From: an uncultured Spirochaetota bacterium
Lineage (GTDB): Bacteria > Spirochaetota > Brevinematia > Brevinematales > JAOACQ01
Reading direction: 5' to 3'
Length of the DNA stretch: 64,000 nt
Assembly: GCA_963783575.1 (NCBI GenBank)
Contig: CAWAOD010000004.1
Coordinates: 160,001 to 224,000 of the forward strand
Shown: in pieces, positions 234 through 62,352 of the stretch
How the letters are laid out: each line of letters opens with the position of its first letter
Position numbering within the stretch: position 1 is the first letter of the stretch
Position numbers and translations under genes: made by a program
The notes under the pieces: generated by a model
Told to the model about the DNA's origin: nothing
Seen by the model: only the letters and a program-made list of their open reading frames with translations
The model's database searches: none

Positions 234-1497
234 ATGGCTGTACTGCTCATAGAAAATAATGATTATAAAAATTTTTATCCGATCATTGAAACTAAATTTC
301 TATGGGATATCACAACCGGTATCTTTACTCCATATCAAAGATATGAAAGGCAATTTCATGATGTGAAGGTTTTTTCCTCAAGGATGAATGAAAAACCTTT
401 TTCTTACTTAAAAGATGACCTGCTTGATAAAGCTTATAATCCCGAACATAATATAAACACCATTATCAATTCACAGTTTATACCTTTTGAAAATCTTTCG
501 CCGCAAATCAACCGTATAGGTATTACAAAGGAAGGCCAGTTTGTATATATACGCCTGGAGGATATCAAACCTGATATTATTGAAATGGTATTGAATAACG
601 ATATTTCCCCTCTCTTAAAGAAATACCAGGTAAAGGAGATTGACGGAGGAATTTTTTTAAAGAATATTTCGGGACATGATCAAGAACAATTCTATGGCTA
701 TCGATTACGAAACATATCTTATCAAGAGCGACAGTAATTTTATTTCCCCCAACAACAATATTTATATCGATAAAACAGCTAAGATTCAGCAGTTTGTTTC
801 GTTACAGGCCGATAACGGGCCTATCATCATTGATAAAGGGGCGCAGGTAAGGGCATTTTCAATCATTGACGGCCCAGCATATATCGGGAAGAATACAATT
901 ATCGACAGCGCAAAGATCAGAAGCGGTACAACCATTAAAGATGTCTGCAGGATCGGAGGTGAAGTAGAGGAATCAATAATTGAAAACTATTCCAATAAGC
1001 GTCATGAAGGTTTCCTGGGCCATTCCTATGTTGGAAGCTGGGTTAATATCGGCGCTATGGCAACAACCAGCGATCTTAAGAATAATTATGGAACAGTAAG
1101 GATCCAGGTTGGGAATGATATTATCGATACACGGATGGATAAATTCGGCTCAATAATCTGCGATTATTCCAAAATCGGTATTGGTGTTATGCTGGGAACC
1201 GGAACTGTAATTGCCGGGGGATGTAATATATTCAGGGAAGAAGAGAGACTTTCTAAGTTTATCAGGCCCTTTAGCTGGGGAATGAACGATAGATATGAAA
1301 TCGAGAGGTTTATTCAGGATGAAAAGAAAATAATGGGCCGCAGGAATGTTACACTTTCCGACTCGAAAGAACGTTTTTTGCGCGGGATCTATCAAAATTC
1401 TATGGAATCGCCGGGCAATAAGCTCAATAATAATATGACAAAAGCCGCAAAACAAAAACCGGCTTCACAAAAACAAAAGGAAACTGCTAAAAAATAG
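234..1497 (+). CDS. GlmU-like sugar-phosphate nucleotidyltransferase / hexapeptide-repeat protein, split by a frameshift near 655-680
   Basis: ORFs 234..737 and 676..1497 overlap just after a T7 run; the C-terminal half has left-handed beta-helix repeats and SNKRHEGFLGHSYVGSWVNIGAMATTSDLKNNY. Confidence 0.75.
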
Positions 1498-2883: not shown

Positions 2884-3381
2884 ATGAAGAGACTTTTAAA
2901 GTCAATGTTTGTGTCGGGTATTGTTGCCGGGGCAATCTTAAGCATTGCAGTGTTATCATACGCAGGTGACAATAAAGAAGGTGATAAGGGTTTTAAAGGG
3001 CCGGATGGCAGCCAGAGAATATTGAGAATGAAAGATAAGCTTGGTTTAACCGATGATCAGGTTAAAAAAATCACTGTCATATTTGATGTAGAGAAAACCG
3101 GCATGAAAGCTTTATTGAAGCAGAGGGGCGACGATCTCAAAACGCTTGGCGAAAAGGTAAAAACAGGCGCGAAAGACGAGGAATTGTTACCTTTAATTAC
3201 CGCTGTACAAACCGATAATCAAAATTTAATGACCGAAGGGAAGAAAGATTTGGATCAGGTTAAGGAAATTTTAACCCCAACCCAACAGGCAAAATGGATT
3301 TTATCAATGAACAATCGTTGGGGCCATGGAAAATTCAACCGTGAAAAAAAGAAAGAAACAGATGAAAATAAGACTTTGTAA
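2884..3381 (+). CDS. Spy/CpxP-family periplasmic protein
   Basis: Signal peptide, LGLTDDQ and ILTPTQQ (LTxxQ) motifs, GGAGG RBS. Confidence 0.8.
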   Translation: MKRLLKSMFVSGIVAGAILSIAVLSYAGDNKEGDKGFKGPDGSQRILRMKDKLGLTDDQVKKITVIFDVEKTGMKALLKQRGDDLKTLGEKVKTGAKDEELLPLITAVQTDNQNLMTEGKKDLDQVKEILTPTQQAKWILSMNNRWGHGKFNREKKKETDENKTL

Positions 3382-3413
3382 TTCAGAAATTAAATTATTT
3401 TCCTGAAATCAGC

Positions 3414-3446
3414 AGGCTGCGCCTTTAAAGGTGCAGCCTTTTTTTA
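3414..3446 (+). terminator. Rho-independent terminator
   Basis: AGGCTGCGCC-TTTAAA-GGTGCAGCCT followed by a T run, between convergent genes. Confidence 0.85.
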
Positions 3447-3541
3447 TAATTGGCTTAATTATTTTCAGCAAATTGAATAAATTAAACTTATTATTGATAT
3501 TTTTGATTTAAGTCGCACTTGAAATTATATTATAATCAATC

Positions 3542-4366
3542 CTATTTCCTTATGTTACGCCTGTATTCCCTGGGCGACATATTCATGATTTTACGAAAAT
3601 AGCGGTTGAAAAAAGAAAGATTTTGATACCCTGCGTCGAACGCTATGTCTATGATTGTCCTGTCAGTTCTTTTAAGCATCTTACAGGCCTTTTCTATCCG
3701 GATGAAATTGATAAATTCAAAAAGCGGCTTCCCGGTTCTTTCTTTAAAAGCGCGGCAGAAATATGTGGCATTCATCCCGCTTTTCCGAACAATATCATTA
3801 AATTCAAAATTATTACTGTAATTCTTTGCGATATCATCCAGGATTACTGATATCGGATCCGTTATAACGGGGGCATTCCTGTTCTCAAACCGGAAAAGCA
3901 GAATGAAAAGCTCAAGTAATTTAACCTCAATCATTACTTTTCTTTCCATGTTATATTCATTATATTCCTTCAGCAGCGACAACATTACCGGTATAATCTT
4001 ATCGGAAAAGTCTTTATTGAACAGATAACAAATCGGTTCGGTTTTATTTCGATAAAAAGGAAGCCCTCTGATAAAAATATTATCTTTACTTGTGTTAAGA
4101 ATATAACCGAGCCATGTTGAATTAAAGAATGCCCTTATAATGCGGATTTCTGCCGTAATGGCAATAGAAGAAGCTGCCTCCGGAGGTATAACTATGAGCT
4201 GTCCTTCCCTGACAACGCTTCCGCCGGTGTTAAAACGGCAGTATAGTTTTCCCTGTTGTACATATATTACCTGATAAGCTTCCCGGCATTCAAAAGACAT
4301 TTTTTCTGGATGCATAGTTAAGTCTTGAATCAGAAAAGGAAATTTCGGATCAAGGTCTGGCATCAT
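3542..4366 (-). CDS. AraC-family transcriptional regulator
   Basis: N-terminal cupin-like domain; C-terminal RIEKACKML...IAFDAGYQNLSFFNRYFRKIMNMSPREYR. Confidence 0.92.
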   Translation of the reverse strand: MMPDLDPKFPFLIQDLTMHPEKMSFECREAYQVIYVQQGKLYCRFNTGGSVVREGQLIVIPPEAASSIAITAEIRIIRAFFNSTWLGYILNTSKDNIFIRGLPFYRNKTEPICYLFNKDFSDKIIPVMLSLLKEYNEYNMERKVMIEVKLLELFILLFRFENRNAPVITDPISVILDDIAKNYSNNFEFNDIVRKSGMNATYFCRAFKERTGKPLFEFINFIRIEKACKMLKRTDRTIIDIAFDAGYQNLSFFNRYFRKIMNMSPREYRRNIRK

Positions 4367-4370
4367 AAAT

Positions 4371-6198
4371 TCATTCTATAATCCGTTCATCAGCTCTGAA
4401 TAGAATGATTTCACCCGCGTCTTCAAGACTCCGGATAATAGCGGCTATTTTCTGCTGGGCATTTTCAACTTCATGCAGTCTGATTGAGCCTATTTCCTTC
4501 ATCTCTGTAAGAACGGCCTTGCTTTCCTTCCCGGATAAATTTTTCAGCAGGTATTCCTTTACCTTTTCATTTACCGATTTTAATGCGCATGCAAGCGTTA
4601 TTACATCGGTTTCTTTAAGGACTTTCCGGATGCTTTTTTCATCAAGGATAATAATATCTTCGAAAACAAACATATTCTGTTTTAAATTCGCGGCAATTTC
4701 AGGGTTTCTGGTTTCTATGGCTTCAATTACGTTTTTCTCAATACTCCGGCTGGTATGGTTCAAAATATCCGCCGCCGCATTGACTCCTCCGGCTAAAGAT
4801 AATGATTCACCGCTTGTAATATCAAGTTTTCTTATAAGAACCCTTTCAATCCATCTGATTACATCCGGTTGGACATTGTCAAGACCGGCGATTTTTTCAA
4901 TTATTTCAGGGGCTTTATCGATTAAAACGGATAAAATCTCGGCAGCTTTCGGTCTTTCCAGATATGAAAGTATCAGCGCTATCAATTGAGGCCTTTCTCC
5001 GCTGATAAAAGTTGCCAGCAGAGCTTGAATCGCATCTGTTCAGGAAAGCAAACGGGCGTTCGGTTTTGCCTCCCTCCAGCGATGATTCTGACTTCTCCGC
5101 CGGCGCCTCTTTAAAATTTAACTGTTCGGATAATACATCCTGCCGGTCCGCGATATCCCTGATTTTTTTATCAAGGCTGTCAAATTTACCGGATATCTCG
5201 TTCATAAATCCCTTTAAAGGCTCCAATATGGGATTATTTTGATCGGTTATCTTCTGTTTTTCGAGCAGTATATTCTCAAATTCCAGAATATTTGAATTGT
5301 GATCTTCATCAATAATCAGTTCATACCTTTTCCCTGTTTTAATTTTATTCTGTTTGAATTGCGCCGCTTTCTGACCGCCGGCATTCAAAACAACCTTGCC
5401 TTTTTCATAACCGGGAAGCCTGATCAAAGTCCCTTTTTTCATCCGTAATAATTCCCTTACAGAAAGTTTATCCCCTGTTATACAGAATTTTGATTCGGCC
5501 TTTGCTCCAGCGGCAATGCGGATATTATCGGGCTTTTCCATTTTTATTCCGGAATACCAGTATTTTGCCGAAAGTTTTGGCATAATTGGCTCCAGAGTAA
5601 TATATGGATAACACAGATTCAGCCGTCCTTCAACTTTACCGATGTTCAGGAGAGTTGAAACAGTTATTACCATTGCATTTGGAGGAACAATCAGCGCGTT
5701 TTGCGGCCGTGTTTCGATTGAACGGATCATAGGTTCAAGTCCGATAACATTTGACCAGGATATTTTCAAATTTTCCAATAACTTTGAAAAGACGCCGTAC
5801 ATAACTGAAAGCTCAATATCTGTTAATTCCTGGTTTTCCATATTGCTTCCTTTCCCGCCGGTTATCCTGTTTATTACCGAATGAGTAATTACCGGAGAAA
5901 TTTCCATGAGTGATGTTCCTTTCAAAGGCTCCATTCCATTTATACTTAAAACCGTCGGGTATGCAAGTGATCTGATAAATTCCTCAAAGCTCTTTTGCTC
6001 GACAAATTCAACCTTCATATGGCACTGCAATCTCAGCATGGCTGAAAAAGTTACCGAATTAAGCCTTGCGTAAGCTTCGTGCATTAACTGCAAGGTCCTG
6101 AGCTGGTCAAACTGAAATTTATCGGGACGCCTGAAATCGTATTCTTTTACTTCATCATTCCGGCTTTTTATATTGGATTGATTTATTCCATTATTCAT
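4371..6198 (-). CDS. Probable FliM-FliG(middle+C-terminal) fusion protein with a 1-nt frameshift near 5020-5030
   Basis: 4915..6198 has FliM motifs (YDFRRPDKF, LNLCYPYITLEPI) and ends ERPFAFLNRCDS; the +1 frame continues LLATFISGERPQLIALILSYL...AGG...MFVFED...RLHEVENAQQKI, which is FliG M and C domains. Confidence 0.72.
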
Positions 6199-6201
6199 AA
6201 T

Positions 6202-6465
6202 TTATCCCTCTTTATTAACCATATTTTTTATCCTGACCGCGAAATTTTCATCAATCACAACCACCTCGCATTGAGCTACTTTTTCGCCGGACACATAAAC
6301 GTCAGCCGGCTCGCCGGCCATTTTATTCAGTTCAATGATAGTGCCCGGCCCCATGGCCGATAATTCATCCACGGTAATCATTGTTTCACCAACGGAAACC
6401 AACATCGGGACTTTGACTTCCGTCAGCCTGCTTTTTCTTTCATTATCCATAAACATCTCCTTCAT
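6202..6465 (-). CDS. fliN: FliN-like SPOA-domain switch protein
   Basis: GTIIELNKMAGEPADVYV...CEVVVIDENFAVRI matches the FliN signature. Confidence 0.85.
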   Translation of the reverse strand: MKEMFMDNERKSRLTEVKVPMLVSVGETMITVDELSAMGPGTIIELNKMAGEPADVYVSGEKVAQCEVVVIDENFAVRIKNMVNKEG

Positions 6466-6714
6466 TTAAAAAATCCTCGACACTTTAAAGTAATAAGCCC
6501 CTTTCCTTTTAACAATTTTGCCGTCCGCAATCACCTGGCCCCCTGCTTCCAATTCACAAAGGGATTCACTTTCCGGTATGGTATAATTATTATCCCTTCT
6601 GATCCGTACAATACCCATGGGGCTCAGCTCAGTCCTGTGGATCACTACATTGGGTTGTACTTTTACCCTGTCTGCGGTGGAAGTTTTTAAAAAAGACTGT
6701 ATGGCGTCTGTCAT
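6466..6714 (-). CDS. Small protein, possibly a divergent SPOA/FliN-like domain
   Basis: GGAG RBS, in operon with fliM/fliN; C-terminal GGQVIADGKIVKRKGAYYFKVSRI resembles the SPOA end. Confidence 0.55.
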   Translation of the reverse strand: MTDAIQSFLKTSTADRVKVQPNVVIHRTELSPMGIVRIRRDNNYTIPESESLCELEAGGQVIADGKIVKRKGAYYFKVSRIF

Positions 6715-6787
6715 TATAAGCTCCTTTATTTTATATTTGTATTATTAAAAATTTTCTTGTATAATCGGCATTGAATCACTGATACTG

Positions 6788-7920
6788 TTACGCTCCATCT
6801 CCCGTCAAAATATCCTCAATCATCCCGGGGTTCAGGCCGGATATAACTTCTTTGACCTGAACAGCCCGCCGTTTACCAATTATACCGGCTTTTTCCTTAA
6901 ATTTTATATTGCCGCCTATCATTACACAGACATCCGAATTAATAGAACCGGATAAACGGATAACATCCCCGCCGCGGATGCCATTCACATCCCTGAATTT
7001 TAAATCTGTTCCGCTGAGCTGTACCGACACATCAATAGCTATATCTGAAATTTGCTCCCGGATCAGTTCCAGGCTTTCCGATGATACCCCGCTTCTGACG
7101 CTGGAGTACCAGAATTGCGATGACAGCTTTGATATGATCGGTTCAATCGTCATATAAGGAATGCAGAGATTAATCATTCCTTCCACATCGCCTATCTTTG
7201 TGTCAAATGTTGTCAGTAAGACCATACTGTTATAAGGAGCGACCTGAGCGAATTGAGGGTTTGTCTCAACATTTCCGAGCCTTGGCCGCAGGTCTATCGC
7301 ATTTGCCCAAGATTCCCTGAAATTCCCCAGGAGCCTGACCAGGATGCCTTCCATTACCGGCATTTCGATATCTGTCAATTCACGGTTGGCTTTGAGCGGT
7401 TCTCCTTTCCCTCCAAAAAGCCGGTCGATCATAGCGAAAGCAATACCTGGATCGATCTCGATCACGGCGCTGCCTTTGAGCGGGTCCATATTGATTATCC
7501 CGAGCGTTGTAGGAGTCGGTATCGAACGGGTAAATTCCTCGTAGGTTAATTGATCGACTGAAACCAGGTGAGCCTGAACCATTGTCCGGAGCTGGGCTGA
7601 AAGTGATGTTGTGATAAGCCTCGCAAATGTTTCGTGCATCATCTGCATTGTCCGCATGTGGTCTTTGGAGAACCTGTCAGGCCTTCTAAAATCGTATACC
7701 TTCAGCTTTTTTTTTGCCTTTTTACCGCAGGATAACCTTCAATACGGATATTTTCCTTCTGTCCCGATTCCGCGGGATTATAATTCCCGCTTCCAACGGC
7801 TGAAAGCAAGGCATCAATTTCATCCTGAGATAGTATCTCACGAGATAGTATCTCACGAGATAGTATCTCGCGGGATAATATCTCCTGCATCTGAATTTCA
7901 GGCATAAATTCTCCATTCAT
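6788..7920 (-). CDS. fliM: Flagellar motor switch protein FliM paralogue, frameshifted in a T9 run near 7707-7715
   Basis: N-terminal LSQDEIDALL CheY-binding motif in ORF 7702..7920; after the shift KVYDFRRPDRFSKDHMRTMQMMHETFAR...ETNPQFAQ...INLCIPYMTIEPI. Confidence 0.88.
7827..7886. repeat. Four tandem 15-bp units (consensus GAGATAGTATCTCAC), in frame within the fliM 5' end
   Basis: Units at 7827, 7842, 7857 and 7872 (last one degenerate); each holds the inverted repeat GAGATA-G-TATCTC; they encode EILSR x3 then EILSQ. Confidence 0.92.
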
Positions 7921-8374
7921 GATTTATTCTATTATTATAAAACACAGCGTGTGCTGATTCCAATACTATTTTAAATAATGAATTATTATTGCAGGTTTAT
8001 AAATAAAGCAGGCTATTGAAAACGCTGGTAAGTAAGTAAGTCTTAATTTTTAAAAAAGTATTGTGAAAGATCAGGGAATAAATTTATGTGGAGGCCTGGC
8101 TTCCGGAAAGAAAGGCCCATTCACAACTTATCGGCGAAGCCCTTGTCAGGGCTTTATCCGCTTCAGGCCGTCAATTGCCTCAAAAAAAAGAACACAGGAT
8201 TCGCAATCTAATCAAGCCGGTTTATATCAGTTAACCGTTTTTTGCAATTTTTATATATTTCCGGTACACTAATTTTAGCTGGTAGAATTAAAATATTTTT
8301 CGTTAAATTGAAAGAAGTCGTCAATTATTCAATAAACCTTTCAGGCGGCATAAACTCTGATTAAAGAGGTTTTT

Positions 8375-8788
8375 ATGGCTGATAAAGTAAATGATATTAA
8401 CACCTTAATAAAAATCCTGATTGTTGATGATGATGATAATGCGCGGTTCATATTAAAAGAATTTCTCAAAGAATTTAATTGCTTTTCGATTCAGGAGGCA
8501 AAGGATGGAAGGGAGGCTGTAGGTTTAGCTTCTATAGATGATTATTCTTTAATTTTAATCGATATAAAAATGCCCAGGCTTGACGGACTTCGTGTAATCG
8601 AAGCCCTTAGAATTGTAGAACCGAACCATAAATTCATAATCATAAGCGCATATCTTAACAAAGAAAACCTTGACAAAGCAAAGAGTTTTGATATTGAAGA
8701 AAAACATATACTGGAAAAACCAATCAACTTCAAAATATTACTCTCGTCAATAGAGGATATCCTGAGGATCAAATTGGTGAGCATATAA
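8375..8788 (+). CDS. Single-domain response regulator (receiver only)
   Basis: ILIVDDD, LIDIKMPRLDG, ISA and EKP receiver motifs. Confidence 0.9.
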   Translation: MADKVNDINTLIKILIVDDDDNARFILKEFLKEFNCFSIQEAKDGREAVGLASIDDYSLILIDIKMPRLDGLRVIEALRIVEPNHKFIIISAYLNKENLDKAKSFDIEEKHILEKPINFKILLSSIEDILRIKLVSI

Positions 8789-8806
8789 GAACGGAGGCAA
8801 GGTTTT

Positions 8807-10573
8807 ATGAAGTATTACCCGTTATTACCTTTGTTCTGCTCTATTTTTGTCTTATTTTTCACCGCTAAGATTTATTATGAAAATAAAAAGAGTCCCGTCA
8901 ATCAGGCTTTTGTTATTTTATGCCTTGCCGTTTCATTTATTTCATTTACCGAGTTTATGGTAGAACAGGCTGATAATGTTAATACAGCACGTTTCTGGAT
9001 TGTGCTGAGTTCGTTCAGGGCTTTTACCATCGCTTTTCTATTTAATTTTACATTGATTTATACCGGCTCAAAACTGTTGAAGAATAAGCTGATTTATATA
9101 CTCATTTATATGCCGGCGGCGGCTCTTTGTACCGTTTTTATTTATTTCAACAGTAATATCATATTGATTAAAGAGTCATGGGGATTTTCCACTTTCCAGG
9201 GAAATTATGATAAAAATTATTTTACGGCGATCAAGTTTCTTGCTATATGGGCATCTTTTTTGATTTATTCATCATTTTTTATCGTTTTATTATATTTTTT
9301 AAAAACAAAGGATAAAAGGATAAAATTACAGTCTAAATATATCACAATTGCATTATTATTTCCGAATATGATACCGCTGATTTATATCCTGGCGCAGATA
9401 CAAAAAGCCAGAGTTCCTTTTGTTACTCCGCTGCCTGTAACGTTGATGGCTTTAATTATAGGTTATTCCATCTGGAAGCATAAACTTTTTGTATTAAATC
9501 CGGCCGCAACCGCGGAGAATATTATAACAACTATGAGGGACGCTCTATTCCTGGTTGATCCTGATGGAACAATCCGAAAAATAAACCCCGCCGTAAAAAA
9601 TATGCTTCTTTATGAGGAAAAAGAATTAATAGGTAAAACCATCATATCATTATTTGCCGATGAAGAAAAAGGGGCATTTTATAATGGCCTTTCGGAGATG
9701 ATTAAAACGGGCGGCGTTCATAATTCTGAAAATAATATTGTTACAAAATACGGGGAAAAAATTCCCGCCCTTTTTTCCTGCTCCGTGTTGAAGGATGATC
9801 TCTATAATACCGCCGGTCTTGTTTGCGTGGTAAAAGATGTTTCTGAATTGAAAAAACTGCAGGAAAAGCTTATTAAATCGGAGAAAATGTCCATTATCGG
9901 CAAGCTAAGCTCTGAATTCGCTCATGAAATAAGAAATCCTCTGAATATCATTGTCGGTTATTCCGAGATGCTGAACTATAAAAAAGATCTGAACAGCGAA
10001 ATACTCAAGGAGTACAGCAGGATAATAAATAAACAGGTGGATAAAATCAACAATCTTATAACTAACCTGTTGTTGTTTGTAAGGGATGATGATTTAAAAA
10101 GTGAAAAAACCGAAATCATATCCTTTATAAATGAATTCATTAAAGAACAAAATAAATACGGCATTATTAGTAATGAAAATATAATTTTGAATCTGGAAAC
10201 GAAAGAGGAAAAAATAGAAATGGATATCGATAAAATAAAAATGAGGCATGTCCTGGGAAATTTACTGATAAATAGTGTTGAAGCGATTAATGAAATAAGC
10301 AGAGAAAAAGGAATCATTATAATAAAGATAGAAAAAACCGGGGATAGTGTTCAAATATACTTTTATGATAACGGTTGCGGAATTGAGACAACAAATTATG
10401 ATGATTTATTTGAACCGTTTAAGACTTCCACAATATATGGAATAGGGTTTGGACTGGCCATTATTCAAAAATTCATCAAAAGCCATAACGGTAGAATCGA
10501 TGTCCGCAGTGAGCCAGGTAATTATACCGAATTTATAATTACTCTGCCCGTAATAAACATCTGTCAGGGGTAA
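8807..10573 (+). CDS. Sensor histidine kinase with N-terminal 7TM-type region and PAS
   Basis: About 7 hydrophobic helices, PAS, H-box FAHEIRNPL, N-box NLLINS, DNGCG, GIGFGL. Confidence 0.9.
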   Translation: MKYYPLLPLFCSIFVLFFTAKIYYENKKSPVNQAFVILCLAVSFISFTEFMVEQADNVNTARFWIVLSSFRAFTIAFLFNFTLIYTGSKLLKNKLIYILIYMPAAALCTVFIYFNSNIILIKESWGFSTFQGNYDKNYFTAIKFLAIWASFLIYSSFFIVLLYFLKTKDKRIKLQSKYITIALLFPNMIPLIYILAQIQKARVPFVTPLPVTLMALIIGYSIWKHKLFVLNPAATAENIITTMRDALFLVDPDGTIRKINPAVKNMLLYEEKELIGKTIISLFADEEKGAFYNGLSEMIKTGGVHNSENNIVTKYGEKIPALFSCSVLKDDLYNTAGLVCVVKDVSELKKLQEKLIKSEKMSIIGKLSSEFAHEIRNPLNIIVGYSEMLNYKKDLNSEILKEYSRIINKQVDKINNLITNLLLFVRDDDLKSEKTEIISFINEFIKEQNKYGIISNENIILNLETKEEKIEMDIDKIKMRHVLGNLLINSVEAINEISREKGIIIIKIEKTGDSVQIYFYDNGCGIETTNYDDLFEPFKTSTIYGIGFGLAIIQKFIKSHNGRIDVRSEPGNYTEFIITLPVINICQG

Positions 10574-10577
10574 TGGA

Positions 10578-11183
10578 ATGAACTTTACGGAACAAAATAA
10601 GAATAACCCGGATTATGAAATTGTAATATTCGGCGCTTCCGCAGGAGGGCCGAAAGCATATAAAAACATACTGCCTCTATTTCCGAAGGATTTCCAGACC
10701 AGTATCATACTGGTTCAGCATATGCTTGTAGGCCCATTTATTCAGGGTTTTGTCGATGGATTATCCAAATTAAGCATAAATATTCAAATCCCCGGTGATA
10801 ATGAACCGATACTTCCAAATAAAATATATGTTGCCCCTTCCGGATATCAGTTGATAATCAGAAATAAAATCATGTTTCTTTCAACAGAAAACAATAATTA
10901 TAATTTCTTCCCATCGATTGACCCGACTTTTATATCAGGGGCCAAATGCTACAAAAATAAAACCATAGGCGTTATATTGACAGGTATGAGCGCGTTTTTT
11001 GATGGGGTGGAAGGCTGCAGGGCAGTAAAAGAAAACGGCGGAATGACGATAGCTCAAAGCGAAGAAACCTGCTCTATTTTCGGAATGCCAAAAGAAGCTA
11101 TCAACGCAGGATTTATAGATTATATCGTCGATCTGGACAAAATTCCGCAAAAGATAATGTCTTTAACCGGTTACAAAAAATGA
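10578..11183 (+). CDS. cheB: Stand-alone CheB methylesterase domain
   Basis: GASAGG, VQHM, PSID, ILTGMSAFFDG and FGMPKEAI motifs; no receiver domain. Confidence 0.85.
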   Translation: MNFTEQNKNNPDYEIVIFGASAGGPKAYKNILPLFPKDFQTSIILVQHMLVGPFIQGFVDGLSKLSINIQIPGDNEPILPNKIYVAPSGYQLIIRNKIMFLSTENNNYNFFPSIDPTFISGAKCYKNKTIGVILTGMSAFFDGVEGCRAVKENGGMTIAQSEETCSIFGMPKEAINAGFIDYIVDLDKIPQKIMSLTGYKK

Positions 11184-13237: not shown

Positions 13238-14668
13238 TTATTTAGTATACCATTCTACCTTTTTCTTAAACCATCTCTGTATCCAGGGGTGCCGTATTAT
13301 TGCAGTAAGCTGGCTGAATCTGAAATATTTTATTAATGAAAGTATTATTTGGAATCTTAAATAAAACTTAAACATAAATTTTTTTTGTATTTTGATTATT
13401 GATTTAAGACTCATTGTTTGGAATGGAGGAATAGTTTCATCTTTTTGAAATTCATTAATATTTTTAATATAAACATCCCTGTTTTTAATATTAAATATTA
13501 TATCAAAATCCTCGCTACCCGGGTAAGGTATGTAATTGCTGACCTGTATTCTGTCAAATGAAACAGATAACGCAAATTTAATGGAATCATTAATCTGGCT
13601 TTTAGTCTCATTTCGGAGACCGCATATAAAGAAACCGCTGACAATTATTTTATTTTTATGAAGGATATTTATTATATTTTTTACCTTTTTTAAATCAACC
13701 TGTTTTTTGATGGTTTTCATTACTTCCGGATTACCGGTTTCAATACCGACCCCTATATAATATCCGCCGGATAATTTCATTTTTTTTATCAGTGGCTCGC
13801 TTAACCGGTCAATTCTTAAACCATTGGGAGCCCCTCCAATGGATATTAATTTTTTGATCAATTAATAAATTAAATATATCTTCAGCTCTTTTTAAATCCA
13901 TAGTTAAATTATCATCGGAGAAAAATATCTCATCAACTCCATATTTTTCTTTTAAATATTTTATTTCTTCAACAATATTCTCTGGCTTTCTATATCGCAT
14001 TACTCTTTTATTTGTTAATCCTGATGAGCAAAAAGTACAGAGATATGGGCATCCACGGCTGGTCAAAATTGGCGCTGGTTTTTTCCCCCTTGTCGGCATT
14101 GAAGCCCCTTCCATATATTTAAAATATTTATCTGGCTGAAGAAGTTCCCAGTCGGGGAATGGTATATCATTGGCATTATCCAGGAACCCATTTTTTTTGG
14201 ATCAAAATTCCATTTACCGTTTTTTTTATATATCAGGCCATCGATTAAATCTGGTTCAGAGATCTTACCTTCCAGAAATCTGATAAAATTAACAATGGGT
14301 TTTTCTCCTTCTCCTGTTATTCCATAGTCTGCTTTAATATAATCCAATGCAATGTCTTTTAAAGCTGTTATATGAGGACCTCCTGCTATCGTTATAATTC
14401 CAGGATACTTATTTTTTAATTTTTCAATAAATTCCTTCGCCCAGTTATGTGCTCCGCTATATACCTGTATTCCGATTACATCTGGAATGGTCTTCTTTTT
14501 GATTTCTTCAACTGCGTTTTCCGGGGTAAACAAATAAAGCGATCCATCAATTAAGCTAATGTTGTTATAACCATTTTGCTTCAATGAGCTGGAAAGATAT
14601 CCTAATGATAATGGTGGAATAACCTGAAATCTAGAATTATGTGTAGGCCTGATTAATAGTATGTTCAT
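13238..14668 (-). CDS. Cobalamin-binding radical SAM protein, in three pieces because of two frameshifts
   Basis: PPLSLGYLSS, AGGPHIT and GEGE (B12-binding part); TSRGCPYLCTFC (CxxxCxxC); GIETG; shifts near 14170-14200 and 13835-13860. Confidence 0.85.
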
Positions 14669-15378: not shown

Positions 15379-15683
15379 TTAAGCAGACTTAGTTTATAAA
15401 GCCAAGGATTGGTAGAAAACCACTTTGGGAAATTTAAATCTGGTTTTGATCAATTTACAATGAGAATAGTATGTTCCAAAGTATCTACCTTGTTGTTAAA
15501 CGGCCGCCGAACTTCGTCCGGCGAGCGACATAATGCAGTAAGGCGCTCCTTCCAGAGCGTTCTTCCCGTTAATAACCCGCCCTCTCGGGCGGCATCCTTC
15601 CTGACGAACTCAGGAAAGAATGGAACAGGCTTTTGCTTCCCTTTTGTTAAAAGGGAAAAAGGCGGCAGTTTTCGCCATCGCCC

Positions 15684-16053
15684 GGATTCCGATACTAATT
15701 GACAGATGCGTTTTCCCCAGCCCCGGAGACCCAAAGAACAACAGATTATGATGATTATCAATCCAGCGGAAATCCAATAACTGTGAAACATCCATTTTAG
15801 ATATTCCATTCACTTTTTCAAAATTAAAACCTTCCACATCTTTACGGACCGGGAAGTGTGCTCCTGCCATATTCCGCTGAAAACGTTTTTCCACTCTATA
15901 ATTCAATTCCAGAGAAAGCAGCCTCTGCAAAAAACTCAAATAAGATTCTTTCGCCTTTTCAGCCTCGCCGATTTCATCGTCAATCCGTTTAATCATCCCC
16001 TTCAACCCGAGAGTTGCAAGCTGCGTTATGATTTGTTCTCTTATCTTCAACAT
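15684..16053 (-). pseudogene. istB: IstB ATPase, truncated just after Walker A
   Basis: SYLSFLQRLL...AHFP...NLLFFGSPGLGKTHL, then runs into repeat DNA. Confidence 0.85.
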
Positions 16054-17345
16054 TGCCGGCCCCCAATGGAACTACAGAGTCTCTGGTATTTCCCGATGTC
16101 TGATTTGGCTACTTCCAGATAGTGTTCAGGATTCATAAGTGGCCTGACTATCTTTTCTACATTCATAGGTATTTCTAAATGTTCTATTTTCAGACAGTTC
16201 CGGTAATTATCCCATAAATCCTTCATTGAGTAACTATCATTATCCAGACAGTTTGAGATCGCTTGTGTCAGCTTATCTGTATCAATTATCTTGTCCCTGA
16301 AGTATTTTCTTCCGGAAAGACACTGGTCCCTTACATAACGATTGAACTTCCTGAAATTACATTCAAGAAAATCCTTCCAGCCTGGAATATCAAAGTACCC
16401 GCTTACTTCTTCTTTCAATAACTTCACTGTCTTTCCCATTTCACGGATCATTGCCCTGTTGGTTATAATCTGCCCCGGAATCACCGAAAGCCGATATTCA
16501 GCGATTTGCTCACCCGTAATCCTGTCAAAGACAAAAAGCAGGCTGTCAGTTTTGTAAATGTCAACCGAACCGTTCCTGTATTTTTCAGGTATATCATACT
16601 GGCTTGTGTCCACAGCGATCCGGCATTTGTCGCTCACACTGCGAGCTTCCCTTGCACCGATCTTTCATCTTTGAAATACTGAAAGTCTTTCGTGTAGATG
16701 ATATCGCCGGAGTTCTCACTCACAACCATCGTGCAGTCCTGATCGATGACAAGTTCCTGCGGTATCCCGCTCATATATGCAAAACAGTCCAATAGATAGA
16801 TTGATCAGGTCTTCTGTCCGGAATGGCCTCTCCTGGAGGGCCGCATACTTAAAACGACTGGCGGATAACACCGCGGCAAATATGTAATACCTTCTGCCAT
16901 ATCTGTCGGTATATTGACCGAAATCAAGCTGGAGCTGCTTTCCATATGGCATGTCAGGCACTTTTGTGTAATACCGGCGCTTTTCATTCAAGGTAAGCTG
17001 CCCGCTTTCAATCAGGTAATGTACGAAATTCCTCATCGTATTTTCATTCGCCGGTAGTTTGCCTTTTACCTCCAATAAATAGTCATACACAGCAGACATA
17101 TTCAGCCGGATGTAATCATTCTTTTCATATACTTTCAATATGTCTGTTTTTATTCCTTCGAATTCTTTTTCACGGAAAGAGAATTCCATCAGGCTTTTCT
17201 GGTATTCGGAATCGTTCATAGCCCAATATTTTCGGACTGTCTTAATATCTATTGACAGTTCCCGGGATACACCATTTTTACTTTTCCCCAAAAGTTTCAG
17301 TTTTTTTATGTCCTGATACATAATATTTTTCACCATTCCTGCCAT
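16047..17345 (-). pseudogene. istA: IstA transposase, frameshifted and apparently internally deleted
   Basis: HTH (VSRELSIDIKTVRKY), PYGKQLQLDFG and VLSASRFKY; ORFs 16716..17345 and 16047..16637. Confidence 0.85.
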
Positions 17346-17486
17346 CCTTTAATGAATTTTCATTAAAGGTAATCTTCAAGCTTCTCTATGGGAAATCTGT
17401 TTGTGACAGGTATGGGAATTTCATTTATTGCTACCCTGGTAAATTAGTTTATCATTTCCAAAAGAAGGTATGCGAAGAAAGAATCA

Positions 17487-17749
17487 CCCCTTCGCATGAG
17501 CGCCATTTCATGTGAAGAGGTCTGTAAATATCTAGGTGTTGTTATTGGTATTTGGTAAAAGATATCTTTTAGTAACAGCCGACTCAACAGTCCATCCTTG
17601 GACTGATTCGTCGGTTTCTGCCGTCCAGGCAGAAACCCTCTAGCTTGTATAGTCCATATTAAACAGGAATAACAACGATGATTGCGCCGAGTTCGCTTAA
17701 TACCACACAAAAACTCAATCAGAAATGGCGTTCATGCTGCGGGGAGCAA
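17487..17749. repeat. REPIN/MITE-like element with inverted termini (copy B)
   Basis: Left GCATGAGCGCCATTTC...GTTGTTATT, right AATAACAAC...GAAATGGCGTTCATGC, internal hairpins. Confidence 0.8.
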
Positions 17750-20700
17750 AAAATTTATTATGATACCGGATAATAAATTAGAGGTCTTTTCCGTTCATTC
17801 TCAATATTAAAATCCTTTTCTTTTTAAAAAATTATCAAAAAATCTATAATCCTCATCATTATCTAATCTTCCATCTGAATTAAGTTCTGTCAATATTTTT
17901 TTTATTTCAGGTAATGCAAAAACTGATGATTCATTAAATAATTTTCTGATTATTCTCATAATTTCAACAGAATATTTTTCTTTATATTTTGGTAGTTTCT
18001 CTAAAATGATACTATATACGTAATCAATTTTTGACTTTACTAAAAATTGTCCTAAGTTATTATATGCAGTTGTAAAAGATTTATCCAATGAGAATAATAC
18101 TTCAATGAAGGATAAATTAAAATTTGAATTCTTAAATTTTTCACTCTTTGGCCAATATTTATGAATCCACGGCCTAATCTTTTTATTCCAAATATCATCA
18201 GGATTATCTGCATTAAGAATAGAAACAAAGTAACGTAATATTTCTTCCCTTATTTCAATATTATCATTTCTTACTATTTTACTTATTTCTTCAGATTTAA
18301 ATATATCTTTATATTCAAGAGTCGAATAAACAAATATTTGAGATAACAAATCTTTTCTTTCAGCTTTTATTTTTATAAAATTTTCATAGAAATCAAAACT
18401 TAATATTAGGTAATTCTTAAGAATTAATATTAATTCTCTAGTTAATGTCGCCCCATGAAAAAAGCCAGTCCAGGCAAATAATGAATAATTTTTATTATTC
18501 CAAGAAAACAAAGGAATTATATATTTTTTTGTCCAATTAGGATCAATTTGAAACAACGAATATAAAAACTGCCCAAATATAGGAATTGCAAATAGTTTTA
18601 CTTTAGACCTTAATTTTAATAATTTTCCAAATCGCTCTTTAAATGAAATATCTATACCTTGACCGGTTTTTGGACTGGTTTTGAAATAAACTTGAAAGAG
18701 GGTTTCGCTTAATTTGCCGATTGGATTGTTGATTGCAGTTGTAATAGGGCCATGAAATGATTTGTATTTCTGATTAATAACATAATCATTTGATAATTGA
18801 AATATATTATCCCATATAATGAAAAAATCTGATAAATCTGAAATATCAAAATCATTTGTTACTGTGTAAAAAACATTAGTTAGAGAATAAATTAAAGCAT
18901 TGTGTAAATTGTATTTTTCGTTTATATCAATTTTAGATATTGTTTCTTTGAATTCTAAAAAAGTCCATTCATTATTAAAACTTCTAAGATAATATTCTAA
19001 AATCAAAGGATCAAATTTTACATCTTTAGCAATTATAGTAAAAATCTCAGCAGCTTTTCCCTTATTTTTTCCAACAAATTTTTCCCATTGTTCCATAAGT
19101 CTTTCACGATTCTCTTTATGATTCATTAAAATATCAGCGACTTCTTGGACTACTTGATCTGCCATCATCTGAAATTGTTCATAAGTATAATCGGATTTCT
19201 TACCAAACAAAGGATGAACAATACCTGAATTTGAATAAATTTCCTCATCATTTTCAGGCAGTTTATATCCATGTTTTTCTAAATTTAAGATATCATTTTT
19301 TATATAAGAGGGAATTGAATTCATGTTTTTAGAAATTATATAATAGAATGGCTTTTTATAATAAAGACAATCATCTAATGAAGTTTTCAAGGGACATTTT
19401 TTGACTAATTGTAATAAAGAACTCAATTCTTTTGAATTAAAAGTTTTACATAGTTTTATAAATAAACTATAAATTTCATTTTCCAATTGGTCTGTCCAAA
19501 TCTTCTCTTCTAAATCAATTAGATACTTTATAGATTCTTTCAATTTATAGCCATCGGTTAATGAAAAAGACCATAAAACCAAACGCCTGAATATTTGAAA
19601 ATCTATATTTTTCAATGTCTCCAGATACATAAAAAAAGTATCTTTTTTGTTTTTATACCAGTATTCCATTCCAATTTGTATAAAATCAACTAAATAAGTC
19701 CAAACTTCACGAAAACTATTATTTCTTGAAGGATTATTTAAAGAATTTAATTGAGTTATCGTATAATAAACTCTAGTATCTTCATATAATATAAAATAGT
19801 CCATTGCTTTCTTAAGATTAGAAATTAATTCAAACAATATTAAGGCGCAGTTTTCTTTAAAAAAAGGATCTTCACGAAGATTCATAAATAATGGATCGTT
19901 TTGTTCCAAAGGGAGATTAATTTCAACTTGTATAAAATCACAGATACTTTTTCTTTCTTCTTTACCGAACCGATATTGTTTACTTAATGAAACAGTTGGA
20001 GTAGATAAAAATATAAAAAGATTTTTTTCAGAATTTGACCATATATGATCTTTAAGCATCTCAATATTTTTATAATAATAAAATTCTGAATTATTAATGG
20101 AGTCTGAAGAATTTGAGTATATTAATAGATTCCAAATCTCATTTAAATTTGATTGAATTTTATTATCTTCCAAAGTCCTTTTAATCCATTGTCTCAGGCT
20201 TATATTTAAACCTGATCCTTTATCCAATACCCAATCGACAAGTTCTTCTTTTTCAAGATTTTTCCCAAACCAAAAAGTAAGCCAATTTAATTTTTTAGAT
20301 AAATTGAGATTTAAACCACTATCTCCTAATTTTGAAACAAAAGGAATTGTTCTTATATTATCTCCATCTTTCATTTTGACCTGTAAAAGATTTTCGCTAT
20401 CTAAAATTCTCAGCCAGTCAACAATATTATCAAAATTATAATTATCGAAAAATCTTGAAAAGTTTCCTTCATAATCATTTTTTATTAAATCTAAAATTTG
20501 ATCGTTCTAAATTCTCCTTTTACTGGTTTATTATTTTTTGAATTTTGAAATATTTTTTCAGAGTAAGAAATTGAGTCTTTACAATAAATTGCCCATTCAA
20601 CTAAAGTATTATTTAACAATTCATGTTTATTAATACTGTCATACAATATTGGAGTAATGCCAAAACTTTTCCAATGGTTTTTTACAGAATTTAAATCCTT

Positions 20701-20917
20701 TGATTTTTCTGAATTATCATAATCCGTTAAAGCAAAAACTTCCTTTATGTTTTCTTCTCCTGACTTTCTATCAGCAGCTATAGCGTTAATGATATATCTC
20801 ATTACAGGATCATTCAAGCTATAGCCAATAAAAAGAACATTGTATCGGGTAAAAAGATTTGAAACAAAACGGCTTGCCCACCCATCTGTCAAATATGCCT
20901 GCCCAAAATCAGCACTA

Positions 20918-22050
20918 GTGCTTAATTGCGTAAGTTAACGATAGTATTTCTTAATTGAGAACCTTTCACTTCCCGTTTTCTCCACACAAAAGGTTTTGCG
21001 GTTTCAGTGTATGCTTTAACAAATGCATCTATTGCTTCTCTCAATTCTTCCGTGTTTTTAAAACTGGCGCCTCTAAGAGCTTTTCGGCTCATAATACCAA
21101 ACCATATTTCCACCTGATTTAACCAACTTGCCGAAGTAGGCGTGTAATGAAAAAAAACATTCTTATTCCGGGATAACCATTCATCGTTCTTTTTGTGAAT
21201 ACAATAATTGTCTAAAATTACATGAATTTCTTTATCTTTTGAAACATCTACCACCACTCTATCCATAAACTCAAGAAATTCAATACGTCTTTTGTATTCA
21301 GTAGTTTGGGTGTGTATTAACCCTGTAGCTACTTCCAGCGCAGCAAATAGGTTCAGCGTTCCATTTCTTTTATATGTACTTTTGTATCCTCTTACAATTT
21401 TTCCATTATCCGTCTCTACATAGCCGGTTGTCCTTTCCAACGCTTGAATACCAGGTTTTTCGTCTACAGATATAACCAATGCATTCATCGGCGGATTTAA
21501 ATACAACCCAATAATATTTGTGGCTTTTGTCGAAAATTCAGGATCAGTGCTGACACACCAACTTCGCTGTCGGGATAAGCAAATTCCTTCTTTTCTTAAA
21601 ACCCTCCATACCGCATGCGTTGATGTGTTTAAATGTTTTGCTAAAGCCGGACCATCCCAAATTGCCTGCCCGATAGGCGGTGTTTTTTCCAGAGTTTCTA
21701 AAACTTTGTCCCTGAAATTCTGCCCATATATTTTTGGCTTTCCTGACCTGGGCAGATCATACAATCCATCAATTCCTTTTTGCTGAAATCTTTTTTTCCA
21801 ATCAATAACCGTATTTGGTCTTATGTGAAGGTCAGCCGCAATCTCAGATACATTTTGTCCTTTCAGGCTATTGACAATTATTTTCGCCCTCTCTACAAGT
21901 CGCGCTTCCATAGTTCGGCTTCTCACCCAACTATCAAGAATAATTTCATCCGCTTTGGTGCATGTTATAACTTGCGTTTTCTTAGACATACAACCTCCTT
22001 TTTTATGTCTAAGATTATAATTAATAACGCTTATTATTGCAATTAAGCAC
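20918..22050 (-). mobile_element. IS630-family insertion sequence (1,133 bp)
   Basis: Terminal IRs GTGCTTAATTGC / GCAATTAAGCAC; TA duplicated at 20916-17 and 22051-52 in a CTAG target. Confidence 0.92.
20922..21989 (-). CDS. IS630 transposase
   Basis: VDEKPGIQAL, YKRNGTLNLFAAL, ILDNY and HYTPTSASWLNQVE (DDE) motifs. Confidence 0.93.
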   Translation of the reverse strand: MSKKTQVITCTKADEIILDSWVRSRTMEARLVERAKIIVNSLKGQNVSEIAADLHIRPNTVIDWKKRFQQKGIDGLYDLPRSGKPKIYGQNFRDKVLETLEKTPPIGQAIWDGPALAKHLNTSTHAVWRVLRKEGICLSRQRSWCVSTDPEFSTKATNIIGLYLNPPMNALVISVDEKPGIQALERTTGYVETDNGKIVRGYKSTYKRNGTLNLFAALEVATGLIHTQTTEYKRRIEFLEFMDRVVVDVSKDKEIHVILDNYCIHKKNDEWLSRNKNVFFHYTPTSASWLNQVEIWFGIMSRKALRGASFKNTEELREAIDAFVKAYTETAKPFVWRKREVKGSQLRNTIVNLRN

Positions 22051-23068
22051 TAGTTAAAATAATATTTCTACATTCAGATTCTGGATTATCACCGCATAAA
22101 CCATGCAAATAAACTAATGAATTCCAATTATCTTTCTTGGGTGTGTTTAAAATTAGAGGTCCTATATTAGTTTGAAAGCCATATTGATCTTTTATAATCT
22201 CAAAACAATTATCGAAATTAGTTGTGACAACTCTGCAAACCTTGTTTTCAAATTGTGTCCCAATTTCTATGATAGCCTTATGAATAATTAAATCTTTTTT
22301 ATTAACAGTTAATAGTTTCTTAATGCTATTTCTTAATTCTGCATTATGTTTACTTTTAGATAACCTATCTTCAAATAATCCCAAAACACGATCAAAATTA
22401 TTTTTTCTAAATTCAATTTTTTCTAAATCTTCAAAACCTTCACCTATTAGTATATAAACATTTTTTACCAAATTTTTAAAATCTGGTAAACCAGCATATA
22501 GAGAAATACCAGCGCCACAAAATAAAACAAGTTCTCCCTTTTCATGAGCTAACAGCAATTTTTCTGGAATATTCGGGCCGTTATTAACAAATTGCATATT
22601 ATATTTCCTTTAATTTAATCCTTTTTTTTCTTCCCTTTTTAAAAATATTCATTTCTCCTCTCCAACCCGCTTCAAATCTTAGAGAATCCAAATAACTCTT
22701 TGAGTACCCGGTTTAATACCTCCGGAACACCTTTTTGTTCCTCTGGGCTCTTATAAATAATTTCAGACCCCCTTTATACTTTTTTATATCATCCGCAAGG
22801 CCATTCCTTGCACTCTTTTTATAGAATTTTGGGATTATTTATTCGTCAACGCCCCTTTCGTAAATTCCGGAAAAATCTATCATTGACCGGATTAACGTAT
22901 CGAGATTTTTATTTTCCGGAAGGTTGTGTTTTGTCCTGTTGGACAAAATATAATTTATTGTATTGATGAATTCATTTTTGTCATCAATCCGCCATTTATT
23001 ATATTTTTGCGCCCACAGAGAGTTTTGGGTCCGGCCCCGTCCCATTCCAGAACAAGGGGGCATGCCCC

Positions 23069-24419
23069 CATAAGCGCTAACTTGATTCTTGATATTTTTA
23101 CAAATCATAGCTATAATATTTATATGGAGGTGGCTATGATTAATGAAGATTGGAATATTTTAGTTTCAATGTTTCCAATAGGTTGGCGTGAAAAGGCAAA
23201 GGAAACGGGTGCATTAAGGGGATTGCGTAAGTGCAAATCTGAGGAGGACTTGCTCAGAACCCTTTTGATTCATCTGGCTGGCGGGTTTTCTCTAAGAGAA
23301 ACAGTAGTAAGGGCTCGTGAAGCCAATTTAGCAGATTTATCTGATGTTGCCTTGCTGAAGCGATTAAGAAAGAGTTCGGATTGGTTGGCGTCATTATGTG
23401 AAGGTTTATTTGAGGAGCGAGGTGTGAAACTGGAAAATAAAGATGGATTTGAAGTTCGCCTTCTTGATGCTACTGTAGTTAAAGAACCTGGAAGGACGGG
23501 AAGTTTATGGAAGGTTCATTACAGTCTTAGACTACCTACATTCAAGTGTGACTACTTTCGCGTAACTCAAATGAACGGTATAGGGACGGGTGAGTCGTTT
23601 AAACAATTTGATTTGAAACCGGGTGATTATATTATAGGTGATCGAGGTTATGGTCAGGCTCCGGGAATAAAGTTTGCCGTTGAGCAGAAAGCTTCTCTAT
23701 TGGTCCGCATCAGCCCTCATCATGTTGTAGTTAGCGATTCATCCGGTAAGCCATTTAATTGGCTGGATAGATTATCAGAAGTTTCGAAATCGGGACAAGC
23801 ATGTTCATGGAATGTTCATTTACAATGCCCTGATAAAACCACTGTTTCCGGTAGAGTTTGTGTTATAAGAAAATCTGAACAAGCTATTCTTAAGGCTCAC
23901 AAACGTATTAAAAAGCATGCTATAAAAAAGAGTCAGAAGTTAAAACCGGAGACACTAATATATGCGGAGTTTGTGATTGTATTCACAACTTTTGAAGAGT
24001 CAAGTTTTCCGCCGGCAGAAATACTGCGATGGTATAGATTACGATGGCAGGTTGAATTAGTATTTAAACGTTTTAAGCAACTTGCGGAACTTGGGCATTT
24101 GCCTAAATATACAGATGAAAGTTCCAAGGCTTGGCTGTATGGCAAATTGTTTGTGGCCCTGTTAAACGAAAAACTTATCTGGCAAGCCCAGACTTTTTTC
24201 CCCTGGGGTTATGATATTATTAATCAGGGCAGGGATAGTAAGCCGTTGGCGTGAATTTGCATTTATGCTTCATGAAATGCAGAGAGTAATTATTCCATGC
24301 CTTTCGCTTACCGGTATTTTTATAAATTGGATAAGAATTTCCAGAGGACTTATTAATAAAAAGAGAAGAAGAAAAATGCAAATTGTGGAATATTTTTCCT
24401 TAACAAGTTAGCGCTTATG
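23069..24419 (+). mobile_element. IS4-family insertion sequence, copy 1
   Basis: IRs CATAAGCGCTAACTTG / CAAGTTAGCGCTTATG; 11-bp TSD GGGCATGCCCC at 23058-68 and 24420-30. Confidence 0.93.
23136..24254 (+). CDS. IS4-family DDE transposase
   Basis: LLDAT, IGDRGY and YRLRWQVELVFKRFK (YREK) motifs; GGAGG RBS before MINEDW. Confidence 0.92.
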   Translation: MINEDWNILVSMFPIGWREKAKETGALRGLRKCKSEEDLLRTLLIHLAGGFSLRETVVRAREANLADLSDVALLKRLRKSSDWLASLCEGLFEERGVKLENKDGFEVRLLDATVVKEPGRTGSLWKVHYSLRLPTFKCDYFRVTQMNGIGTGESFKQFDLKPGDYIIGDRGYGQAPGIKFAVEQKASLLVRISPHHVVVSDSSGKPFNWLDRLSEVSKSGQACSWNVHLQCPDKTTVSGRVCVIRKSEQAILKAHKRIKKHAIKKSQKLKPETLIYAEFVIVFTTFEESSFPPAEILRWYRLRWQVELVFKRFKQLAELGHLPKYTDESSKAWLYGKLFVALLNEKLIWQAQTFFPWGYDIINQGRDSKPLA

Positions 24420-24782
24420 GGGCATGCCCCCTTGTTCTGGAATAGGACGGAGATGTGGATGGGGAATTGTCCAACCCATATGAATATTATACTCTCGTGC
24501 GCTCATGGATTTAATTTTACCGATGATTCCCGGGAGACTGGTATATTCCGCCTCGATCAGCAAATGAACATGATCGCCGCAAATATTATAAGCATATACT
24601 TTTAATTTATCCACGGCAATAATATGGACAATGGTTTTTGTAATAAAATATTCGCTTTCATCATCCAGCCAAACAGCTTTGCCTTTTTGTACCTTGTATT
24701 TAATCATGCGCGGAGAAACTCTGGAATTGTGTGTTGACCATGTCGTATGCCATATTTCAGCCATATTTATTCACTCATCCTG

Positions 24783-61026: not shown

Positions 61027-61035
61027 ATGATTACC

Positions 61036-62317: not shown

Positions 62318-62352
62318 TTTATTCTCCTATTACAATTACCTTAATAATTTTA

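Follow-up and report, generated by a model that had tools for sequence, protein, structure and literature searches.

A covalent FliM-FliG fusion in an accessory switch-protein cassette linked to an AraC-family regulator in Spirochaetota

One gene of the window, as we call the whole 64,000-nucleotide stretch analysed here (G000:C4:160001-224000, from an assembly of 18 contigs and 4.9 Mb, 89.85% complete), encodes a covalent FliM-FliG(MC) protein without the CheY docking peptide. It belongs to a cassette in which genes for an orphan SPOA protein, FliN and the fusion follow each other in this order and closely spaced, with an AraC gene nearby.

The fusion gene and its one-base break

On the minus strand a 427-aa ORF runs from 6198 to 4915, with a Pfam FliM match (PF02154) at residues 20-209 (E 3e-56), and its end reads ...ERPFAFLNRCDS...; the shifted frame, from 5036 to a stop at 4371, reads ...LLATFISGERPQLIALILSYL... 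and carries FliG_M and FliG_C (Pfam) (Table 1). The first-pass annotation had proposed that a frameshift of 1 nt masks a fusion here, and this was borne out, as the homologues are single ORFs and the alignment with intact homologues is gapless at the junction. The span measures 1828 nt (3n+1); removal of one base leaves an open frame of 1827 nt, and the product has 608 aa, close to the length expected, with the ERPQ motif, the GG linker and MFVF all present.

Table 1. Features of the fusion locus and broken genes of the window
Feature	Position	Strand	Remarks
Cassette-specific AraC-family regulator	3542..4366	(-)	start 4 nt after fusion stop
FliM-FliG(MC) fusion gene	4371..6198	(-)	608 aa when read across one extra base
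FliG C domain	4401..4724	(-)	MFVF just inside; torque-helix equivalent ~4535-4479
FliG middle domain	4785..5055	(-)	PFAF at 5055, ERPQ 4997-4986, GG linker 4790-4785
Stretch holding one extra base	5015..5029	(-)	likely assembly error
Linker helix, particular to the fusion family	5113..5247	(-)	heptad repeat; RQD-L-[DE]-L motif conserved; predicted parallel coiled coil
Degenerate FliM C-terminal SPOA domain	5299..5526 (approximate limits)	(-)	Pfam FliMN_C below cut-off
FliM middle domain, CheC-like fold	5572..6141	(-)	PF02154; GGxG loop RITGGKG ~5859-5848
Cassette FliN	6202..6465	(-)	SPOA only; EVVVIDENF patch kept; stop 3 nt before fusion start
Orphan SPOA-like protein	6466..6714	(-)	cassette marker gene
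Extra full-length fliM with CheY peptide	6788..7905	(-)	broken at A9 run 7715-7707
Cassette promoter	7934..7972	(-)	operator-like site 7972-7959 overlapping -35, 19 nt, -10 TATAAT 7939-7934
Broken GlmU-like gene	234-1497		inferred from split Pfam matches
Broken B12 radical-SAM gene	13238-14668		two breaks

Judged by its sequence, the window protein resembles a C-ring part yet fails the features that define FliG and FliM, and it scores under both NCBIfam cut-offs (FliG TIGR00207, FliM TIGR01397). TIGR00207 aligns only over profile positions 102-333; FliM, SPOA domain and linker occupy the place of FliG-N in the alignment, and the Pfam FliG_N match falls on the M domain. The SPOA domain is matched weakly by PF01052 (FliMN_C; E 0.008, 16.6 bits against a cut-off of 23.8). 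At the N-terminus the CheY peptide is missing, and the FliN stop, 3 nt before the fusion ATG, leaves no space for one.

The AlphaFold2 model of an intact homologue from genome G013 (pLDDT 74.2, pTM 0.50) consists of FliM-M, which superposes on 4fq0_A/4fhr_A at 1.2-1.6 Å, a weak SPOA domain with strands at pLDDT ~65, a 45-residue helix (311-355) between disordered stretches, FliG-M and FliG-C. At the end of the linker helix a motif is conserved, with Q in 50/53 and D/E in 53/53 fusions (67 and 76 of 101 in the non-redundant set). A three-copy model of the linker (residues 303-372) scored 0.46, against 0.00 for the best control, with at least 82% of contacts shared among runs, a partner pLDDT of at least 68, and a parallel arrangement of the copies with residues 328, 332, 335, 339, 342, 346 and 349 in register. 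The pass is marginal: the mark of 0.42 was met by 20/30 solved pairs and 1/23 single chains, counts that apply only roughly to three copies and to the alignment used here. Many solved structures, moreover, are coiled coils. The model thus suggests, at this marginal level, that the linker forms a parallel coiled coil; the number of chains is not settled.

The single extra base is probably an assembly error. The seven best among 30 open single-base-deletion variants, within 2.2 bits of each other, all place it in 5015-5029, and its position can be resolved no finer than this. Indels are frequent in this assembly: frameshifts affect 4/57 conserved genes, with 5 shifts in 63,291 nt (a small sample), and six breaks lie in non-transposon genes of the window. 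We consider it unlikely that the base is a recent real lesion, in which case the window copy would be a recent pseudogene, two ORFs, or a gene reliant on ribosomal or polymerase slippage. Two breaks do lie within one 4.4-kb operon, one in 5015-5029 and one in the A9 run (7715-7707), but shifts occur about once per 9-13 kb in this assembly, neither half of the fusion has another stop or indel, and the cassette promoter is intact. Although GGAG precedes a TTG at 4985, a start there would remove PFxF and ERPQ. A real base would agree with the lack of a long homopolymer at its best placements and with the 427-aa piece being one of the collected proteins (P0170), a gene call of this assembly; against it, the shift site is absent from all homologous junctions seen. 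For the same reason, that no homologue has a shift site at the junction, programmed frameshifting as a family trait was ruled out.

The homologues are one ORF and not two separate genes. Among 31 further loci found through the orphan SPOA gene, 24 show the junction, six stop at a contig edge and one (G148) has another, degenerate layout. The junction lies in one frame at 24/24 loci chosen only through the orphan, and at 31/31 when eight loci found first via the fusion are added. The G148 locus (L286:6598-9002, contig C64) has a FliM part fused to FliG-M only, along with FliN, another FliM-like gene and a SPOA gene resembling the orphan; no AraC gene was seen within 9 kb of it.

Cassette partners, promoter and neighbours

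The orphan SPOA protein had no Pfam or NCBIfam match. A word-based search returned only the orphan itself, and profile searches of genomes found its relatives; in the Atlas it belongs to a cluster without a name, with 158 proteins from Spirochaetota, whose next neighbours are FliMN_C proteins, which is a lead. The regulator is specific to the cassette: with a model built without the window the cassette AraC reached 264.6 bits, and the runner-up among the 10 AraC-like segments of the genome 92.9. It also has a weak ExsA_N match (E 8e-5), below cut-off. In 35 of 38 other loci (two are cut by contig ends) an AraC gene lies within ~700 bp, upstream in 32 and downstream in 3; in the window it lies downstream of the fusion, as the last gene of the operon.

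The operon of the window has a further fliM, which was not seen in other cassettes. Its product has EILSR three times (a 15-bp tandem repeat) ahead of the CheY peptide EILSQDEIDALL, and is 66% identical over 134 aa to the normal FliM of the same genome. Removing one base from its A9 run leaves the gene closed, and the frames show the run to be one A short; such a run could also allow slippage. The FliM proteins of this genome have spirochaete proteins as nearest records, with 50-62% identity.

Upstream of the orphan, a direct repeat with consensus YAARATMGTRYC is present twice. The pair occurs in 22/37 upstream regions against 1/1850 shuffles, with a seed picked by eye from the same sequences, and the repeats are 32 bp apart in 17/23 pairs. 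The proximal site is followed, after 18-20 nt, by a TAnnnT box in 28/36 non-window regions, whether araC is upstream or downstream, a pattern whose form was chosen by eye after the window's site was known. An AraC/XylS regulator is in this way connected, by linkage and by motif, with a conserved operator over -35, and AraC is the putative protein that binds the repeat. When up to 3 mismatches were allowed, each of 5/5 genomes had a single match to the tandem pattern; as these are the training loci, what is new is the absence of a second site, and no wider regulon was found in the five.

In the window genome (G000) there is no strong tandem site (the best scores 15.4, against 28-59 for most training sites), and the region before the orphan has no repeat pair, a distal half-site not being evident. 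Instead, with a model trained without the window, the site at 7972, before the extra fliM, ranked first of 9,823,920 positions (21.0, the next 18.6), and the promoter there is also the top sigma-70 match of 20 in 3300-8400. The operon here is thus likely fliM', orphan, fliN, fusion, araC.

When the first 16 kb of the window were compared with 12 loci, no conserved neighbours appeared beyond the four cassette genes. Divergent from the cassette promoter, 8375-11183 (+) encodes a receiver-only protein, a 7TM-PAS histidine kinase and a stand-alone CheB methylesterase domain; these CheY-like, kinase and CheB genes were not found beside other cassettes. Elsewhere in the window there are several insertion-sequence genes (IstB, DDE transposases; 15610-27028 and 48077-49174), an 855-aa ORF (17807-20374) with no Pfam match at E 1e-8, and three tandem regulators of 7TM-LuxR type (59767-63630, minus strand), the middle one frameshifted near 61590.

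Carriers of the cassette have normal flagellar genes. G000 has, elsewhere, a normal fliF-fliG-fliH-fliI block and fliM-fliY, with one FliF, and five other carriers have one FliF each together with normal FliG and FliM (5/5). A search of 46 genomes included 21 carriers, every one of which has flagellin, and no carrier checked was non-flagellated. The cassette lies away from flagellar operons at all loci seen. Some carriers have an additional, separate FliG paralogue of 404-423 aa.

Conservation and spread of the fusion family

Single chains with FliM, FliG_M and FliG_C were found in 5/7 longer matches and in 25/62 matches, and they are common: the fusion architecture, which the first-pass annotation had proposed to search for, is present in 101 of the best 150 matches among 50%-identity representatives, with a median of 611 aa. 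A few of the 101 are longer fusions of other build. P0102, P0147, P0163, P0167, P0173 and P0200 (660-1123 aa) combine FliM and FliG parts with other spacers and possibly arose by separate fusion events. Databases hide the fusion, as the named members among those seen are labelled plain FliM or FliG. A literature search by title and abstract start, mainly in openly accessible papers, found no description of a FliM-FliG fusion cassette.

Motifs were counted in 53 fusions and in the non-redundant set of 101, with 47 normal FliG and 72 normal FliM as controls, the normal-FliM control being the best 80 of 584 matches of a contig scan, all normal FliM loci. The motif LSQxEIDxLL, which we take to be the N-terminal CheY-P peptide of FliM, is present in 4/53 and 3/101 fusions, against 72/72 normal FliM; the absence of this docking peptide, already noticed for the window protein, is thus a trait of nearly the whole family. 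The invariant residues of FliM-M (91 columns) are kept by a median of 77% of the 53 fusions. In the GGxG loop the second G is lost in 19/53, while the window copy has GGKG. At the EHPQ motif, E is kept in 53/53 and Q in 52/53 (93/101 and 91/101), and the second position is H in 22 and R in 28 of the 53. Of the 28 fusions with R in place of H, 19 also lack the second G of GGxG; most belong to one lineage, hence these cases are not independent. The second G of the GG linker is kept in 53/53 and the two F's of MFxF in 52/53 and 51/53 (95, 99 and 98 of 101).

The torque helix appears, from the aligned sequences, as the most eroded part of the fusion family. Among 24 columns at least 90% conserved in the 47 normal FliG, the least kept in the 53 fusions are the equivalents of R281 (0%), D288 (9%) and S279 (11%). 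According to one report, R281, D288 and D289 are the MotA-facing charges, with crosslinks at R281 and D288 (10.1101/2021.01.07.425829). We placed their equivalents by motif spacing and by alignment with T. maritima. The R281 equivalent is R in 0/53 and 7/101 fusions, against 47/47 normal FliG; in the set of 101, K is found in 10 and D/E in 40. An acidic residue stands at the D288 equivalent in 7/53 and 28/101, against 47/47, and a basic 281 together with an acidic 288 in only 5/101. The equivalents of R297 and K264 are kept in about 90% of the 101. The window copy, with K/T/E at the R281/D288/D289 equivalents and R297 kept, is among the least eroded, since K and E at 281 and 289 occur in 2/53. 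The proposal that the charged C-terminal helix is kept therefore held for the fold, but the charges are only partly kept here and mostly lost in the family.

It is highly improbable, and already largely refuted, that the fusion is a neutral relic, a decaying and functionless fliM-fliN-fliG duplicate. Three functional motifs are lost and the branches are long; yet the family comprises more than 100 clusters (50% identity) whose length is constant, almost all domains show a lower pN than pS (six pairs compared), the novel linker and the operator are conserved, and the loss of motifs is selective rather than even.

The FliG half of the window fusion groups with other fusions (98 SH-aLRT), apart from the FliG of its own genome. 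With FastTree, 45/53 fusion FliG halves came together and the FliM halves were ungrouped; in a quick IQ-TREE run 22 of 26 sampled fusions stood apart from 17 normal FliG. On these sequences, one origin of the fusions is neither shown nor ruled out by the trees.

The cassette is patchy across Spirochaetota, and the GC content of its locus spans 28-70%. The fusion was found in 5/400 other genomes of the phylum, from 5 families (E 1e-140; three candidates scored per genome). The orphan SPOA gene was found in 9/401 phylum genomes, in 3/61 and 1/61 genomes of two further sets, and in 28/81 genomes that include 23/42 of one family, its best. One genome (G419, 88% complete, 4% contaminated) has three complete cassettes, on C5, C22 and C38 (L264, L274, L265).

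Possible functions and known systems

We favour, with slightly less than an even chance, the reading that the fusion and its two FliN-type partners would be an AraC-induced, torque-dead copy of the switch that damps or locks the one normal motor type, as a brake or clutch. A dedicated AraC gene and a tandem-repeat operator accompany the genes for the fusion, FliN and the orphan SPOA protein. On some signal, AraC would bind the repeats, the proximal one over -35, and activate the operon; where araC is the last gene, as here, this activation would be a positive feedback. The SPOA domain of the fusion would pair with FliN and the orphan, and the resulting unit would resemble FliM:FliN3 or FliM:FliY:FliN. 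If the marginal linker model is right, the helix would reach from the SPOA base to FliG-M and bundle several chains as a parallel coiled coil, and this bundle would replace the missing FliF/FliG-N template. Through their lateral assembly motifs, the units would join the normal ring or compete with it and its partners as blank cogs. Having no FliF anchor, CheY peptide or proper MotA contact, blank cogs would mean less torque and less switching.

As described in PMC11087270, FliF-C/FliG-D1 is the ring anchor and the torque helix the MotA site, while the joints of the ring are the domain-swapped FliG armadillo motifs and the FliM-C:3FliN spiral. As the cassette retains these joints but is without anchor, input and output, an inducible dummy subunit is favoured, and the sequence argues against the fusion anchoring on FliF or taking MotA torque. 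Other observations weaken the brake or clutch. The window copy is among the least eroded, 5/101 fusions retain a basic 281 with an acidic 288, and R297 and K264 are mostly kept. Moreover, the operon here adds a fliM with a CheY peptide, and two breaks in a 4.4-kb operon make decay of the window copy possible.

The dedicated FliN and orphan and the self-bundling of the linker suit a separate complex equally well. Fusion, FliN and orphan might form a cytoplasmic ring or bundle of their own, nucleated by the coiled coil and independent of the motor, whose new task might be the titration of FliH-FliI or CheY by way of the FliN patch, or the retention of AraC, by partner switching of the kind known from ExsA-type circuits; we regard this as possible but somewhat unlikely. 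The absence of the FliF-binding domain, the possession of own SPOA partners, the self-association in the linker model, the position of the cassette, never inside flagellar operons at the loci seen, an AraC with a single apparent target and its ExsA_N match (weak and below cut-off) would all fit such a complex. So would the co-drift of the FliM-FliG interface, and in one lineage this drift (ERxQ, second G of GGxG lost) would hinder mixing with normal subunits. However, all carriers checked are flagellated, and the ring motifs of FliG-C and FliM-M are under selection.

A different role on the motor, for which we see only a small chance, is that of an active alternative rotor subunit, which would sit in working motors and set their direction or make the poles differ, with torque passing via neighbours or the remaining charges. 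About 90% of the fusions do keep the R297 and K264 equivalents, and the GG hinge is retained, but the R281 equivalent is acidic in 40/101 and some carriers have the separate FliG paralogue of 404-423 aa. According to PMC7225975, the asymmetry of spirochaetes does not depend on CheY, and Borrelia has an asymmetric FliG paralogue; against this, the cassette is patchy (orphan in 9/401 phylum genomes, 23/42 in the best family) and is thus not a general answer to spirochaete asymmetry.

The brake or clutch and the off-motor complex meet in a broader proposal, which we hold to be unlikely: a switched dummy rotor. A FliF-free FliM-FliG-FliN ring would nucleate on its own coiled coil and either unplug the motor or act off the motor as a scaffold in AraC feedback, giving a bistable switch between motile and non-motile states of an undescribed kind. 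If motor damping is true, it would be a new control of motility, exerted through dummy subunits that a single transcription factor governs. The fusion is in any case a natural, soluble, covalently linked FliM-FliG unit, and it opens three questions to experiment: whether the FliF template is needed for a C-ring to form, whether FliG-M is seated on the FliM of its own chain or swapped, and what number of torque-dead subunits blind to CheY a ring can accommodate.

As a brake or clutch, the cassette would uncouple rotor from stator in a regulated way, as do EpsE, YcgR and MotI, which are motor brakes or clutches of unrelated folds that bind FliG or MotA; unlike these, the cassette would be a dummy built from the ring's own parts. 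The ExsA-type AraC activators bind tandem sites over -35. With them the cassette regulator shares a direct-repeat operator, a proximal site overlapping -35 and a small regulon, but the repeat has another sequence and a 32 bp spacing, and the putative target is a switch-protein cassette. The SctQ platform of the T3SS contains several different SPOA proteins per unit. SctQ models fall far below cut-off on the cassette proteins (TIGR02551 gives 49 bits on the cassette FliN, the cut-off being 100.8), and no injectisome genes were found among 51 window ORFs searched with Pfam. The FliM/FliY/FliN ring of Campylobacter and Helicobacter (PMC6946799) also has several different SPOA proteins per unit; this ring and SctQ are essential parts of an anchored ring, unlike the cassette.

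With the C-ring (FliG TIGR00207, PF14842+PF14841+PF01706; FliM TIGR01397, PF02154+PF01052; FliN/FliY; structures named for comparison 4FHR, 3SOH, 4FQ0, 8UMD and 8WIW) the fusion shares domain folds, namely those of FliM-M, FliG-M and FliG-C, as well as E-x-P-Q, GG, MFxF and SPOA partners. It differs in being one chain with a new linker of 90-100 aa and no FliG-N, in that the family is mostly without the CheY peptide and the R281/D288 equivalents, and in its place in an accessory cassette under an AraC. Borrelia FliG1, a second FliG paralogue of spirochaetes (PMC7225975), is likewise an extra FliG-type protein beside the essential FliG. FliG1 is a free protein, whereas the FliG part of the cassette is joined to FliM, comes with FliN partners and a regulator of its own, and is patchy in its occurrence.

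Further proteins suggest that rotor-stator interface parts are reused in spirochaete signalling. In G000, L004:1447-2106 (contig C9) encodes 219 aa whose start resembles FliG-C and whose end resembles the cytoplasmic part of MotA (NCBIfam, below cut-offs) and directly precedes an ECF-sigma-like gene; P0007 and P0008 have repeated MotA-like domains joined to FliG-C, and P0068 has an ECF sigma joined to FliG-C. A FliG_C fragment also follows an AbrB/MazE-like start (seen by eye) in the 137-aa frame L003:1348-1761 (G000:C6), and FliG_C-fragment frames of 151 aa and 221 aa are present in G111 and G289. Finally, L104:5536-8546, in a context from which other flagellar genes are absent, has a 517-aa FliG with a FliF-tail-like start beside a 486-aa FliM-FliN fusion.
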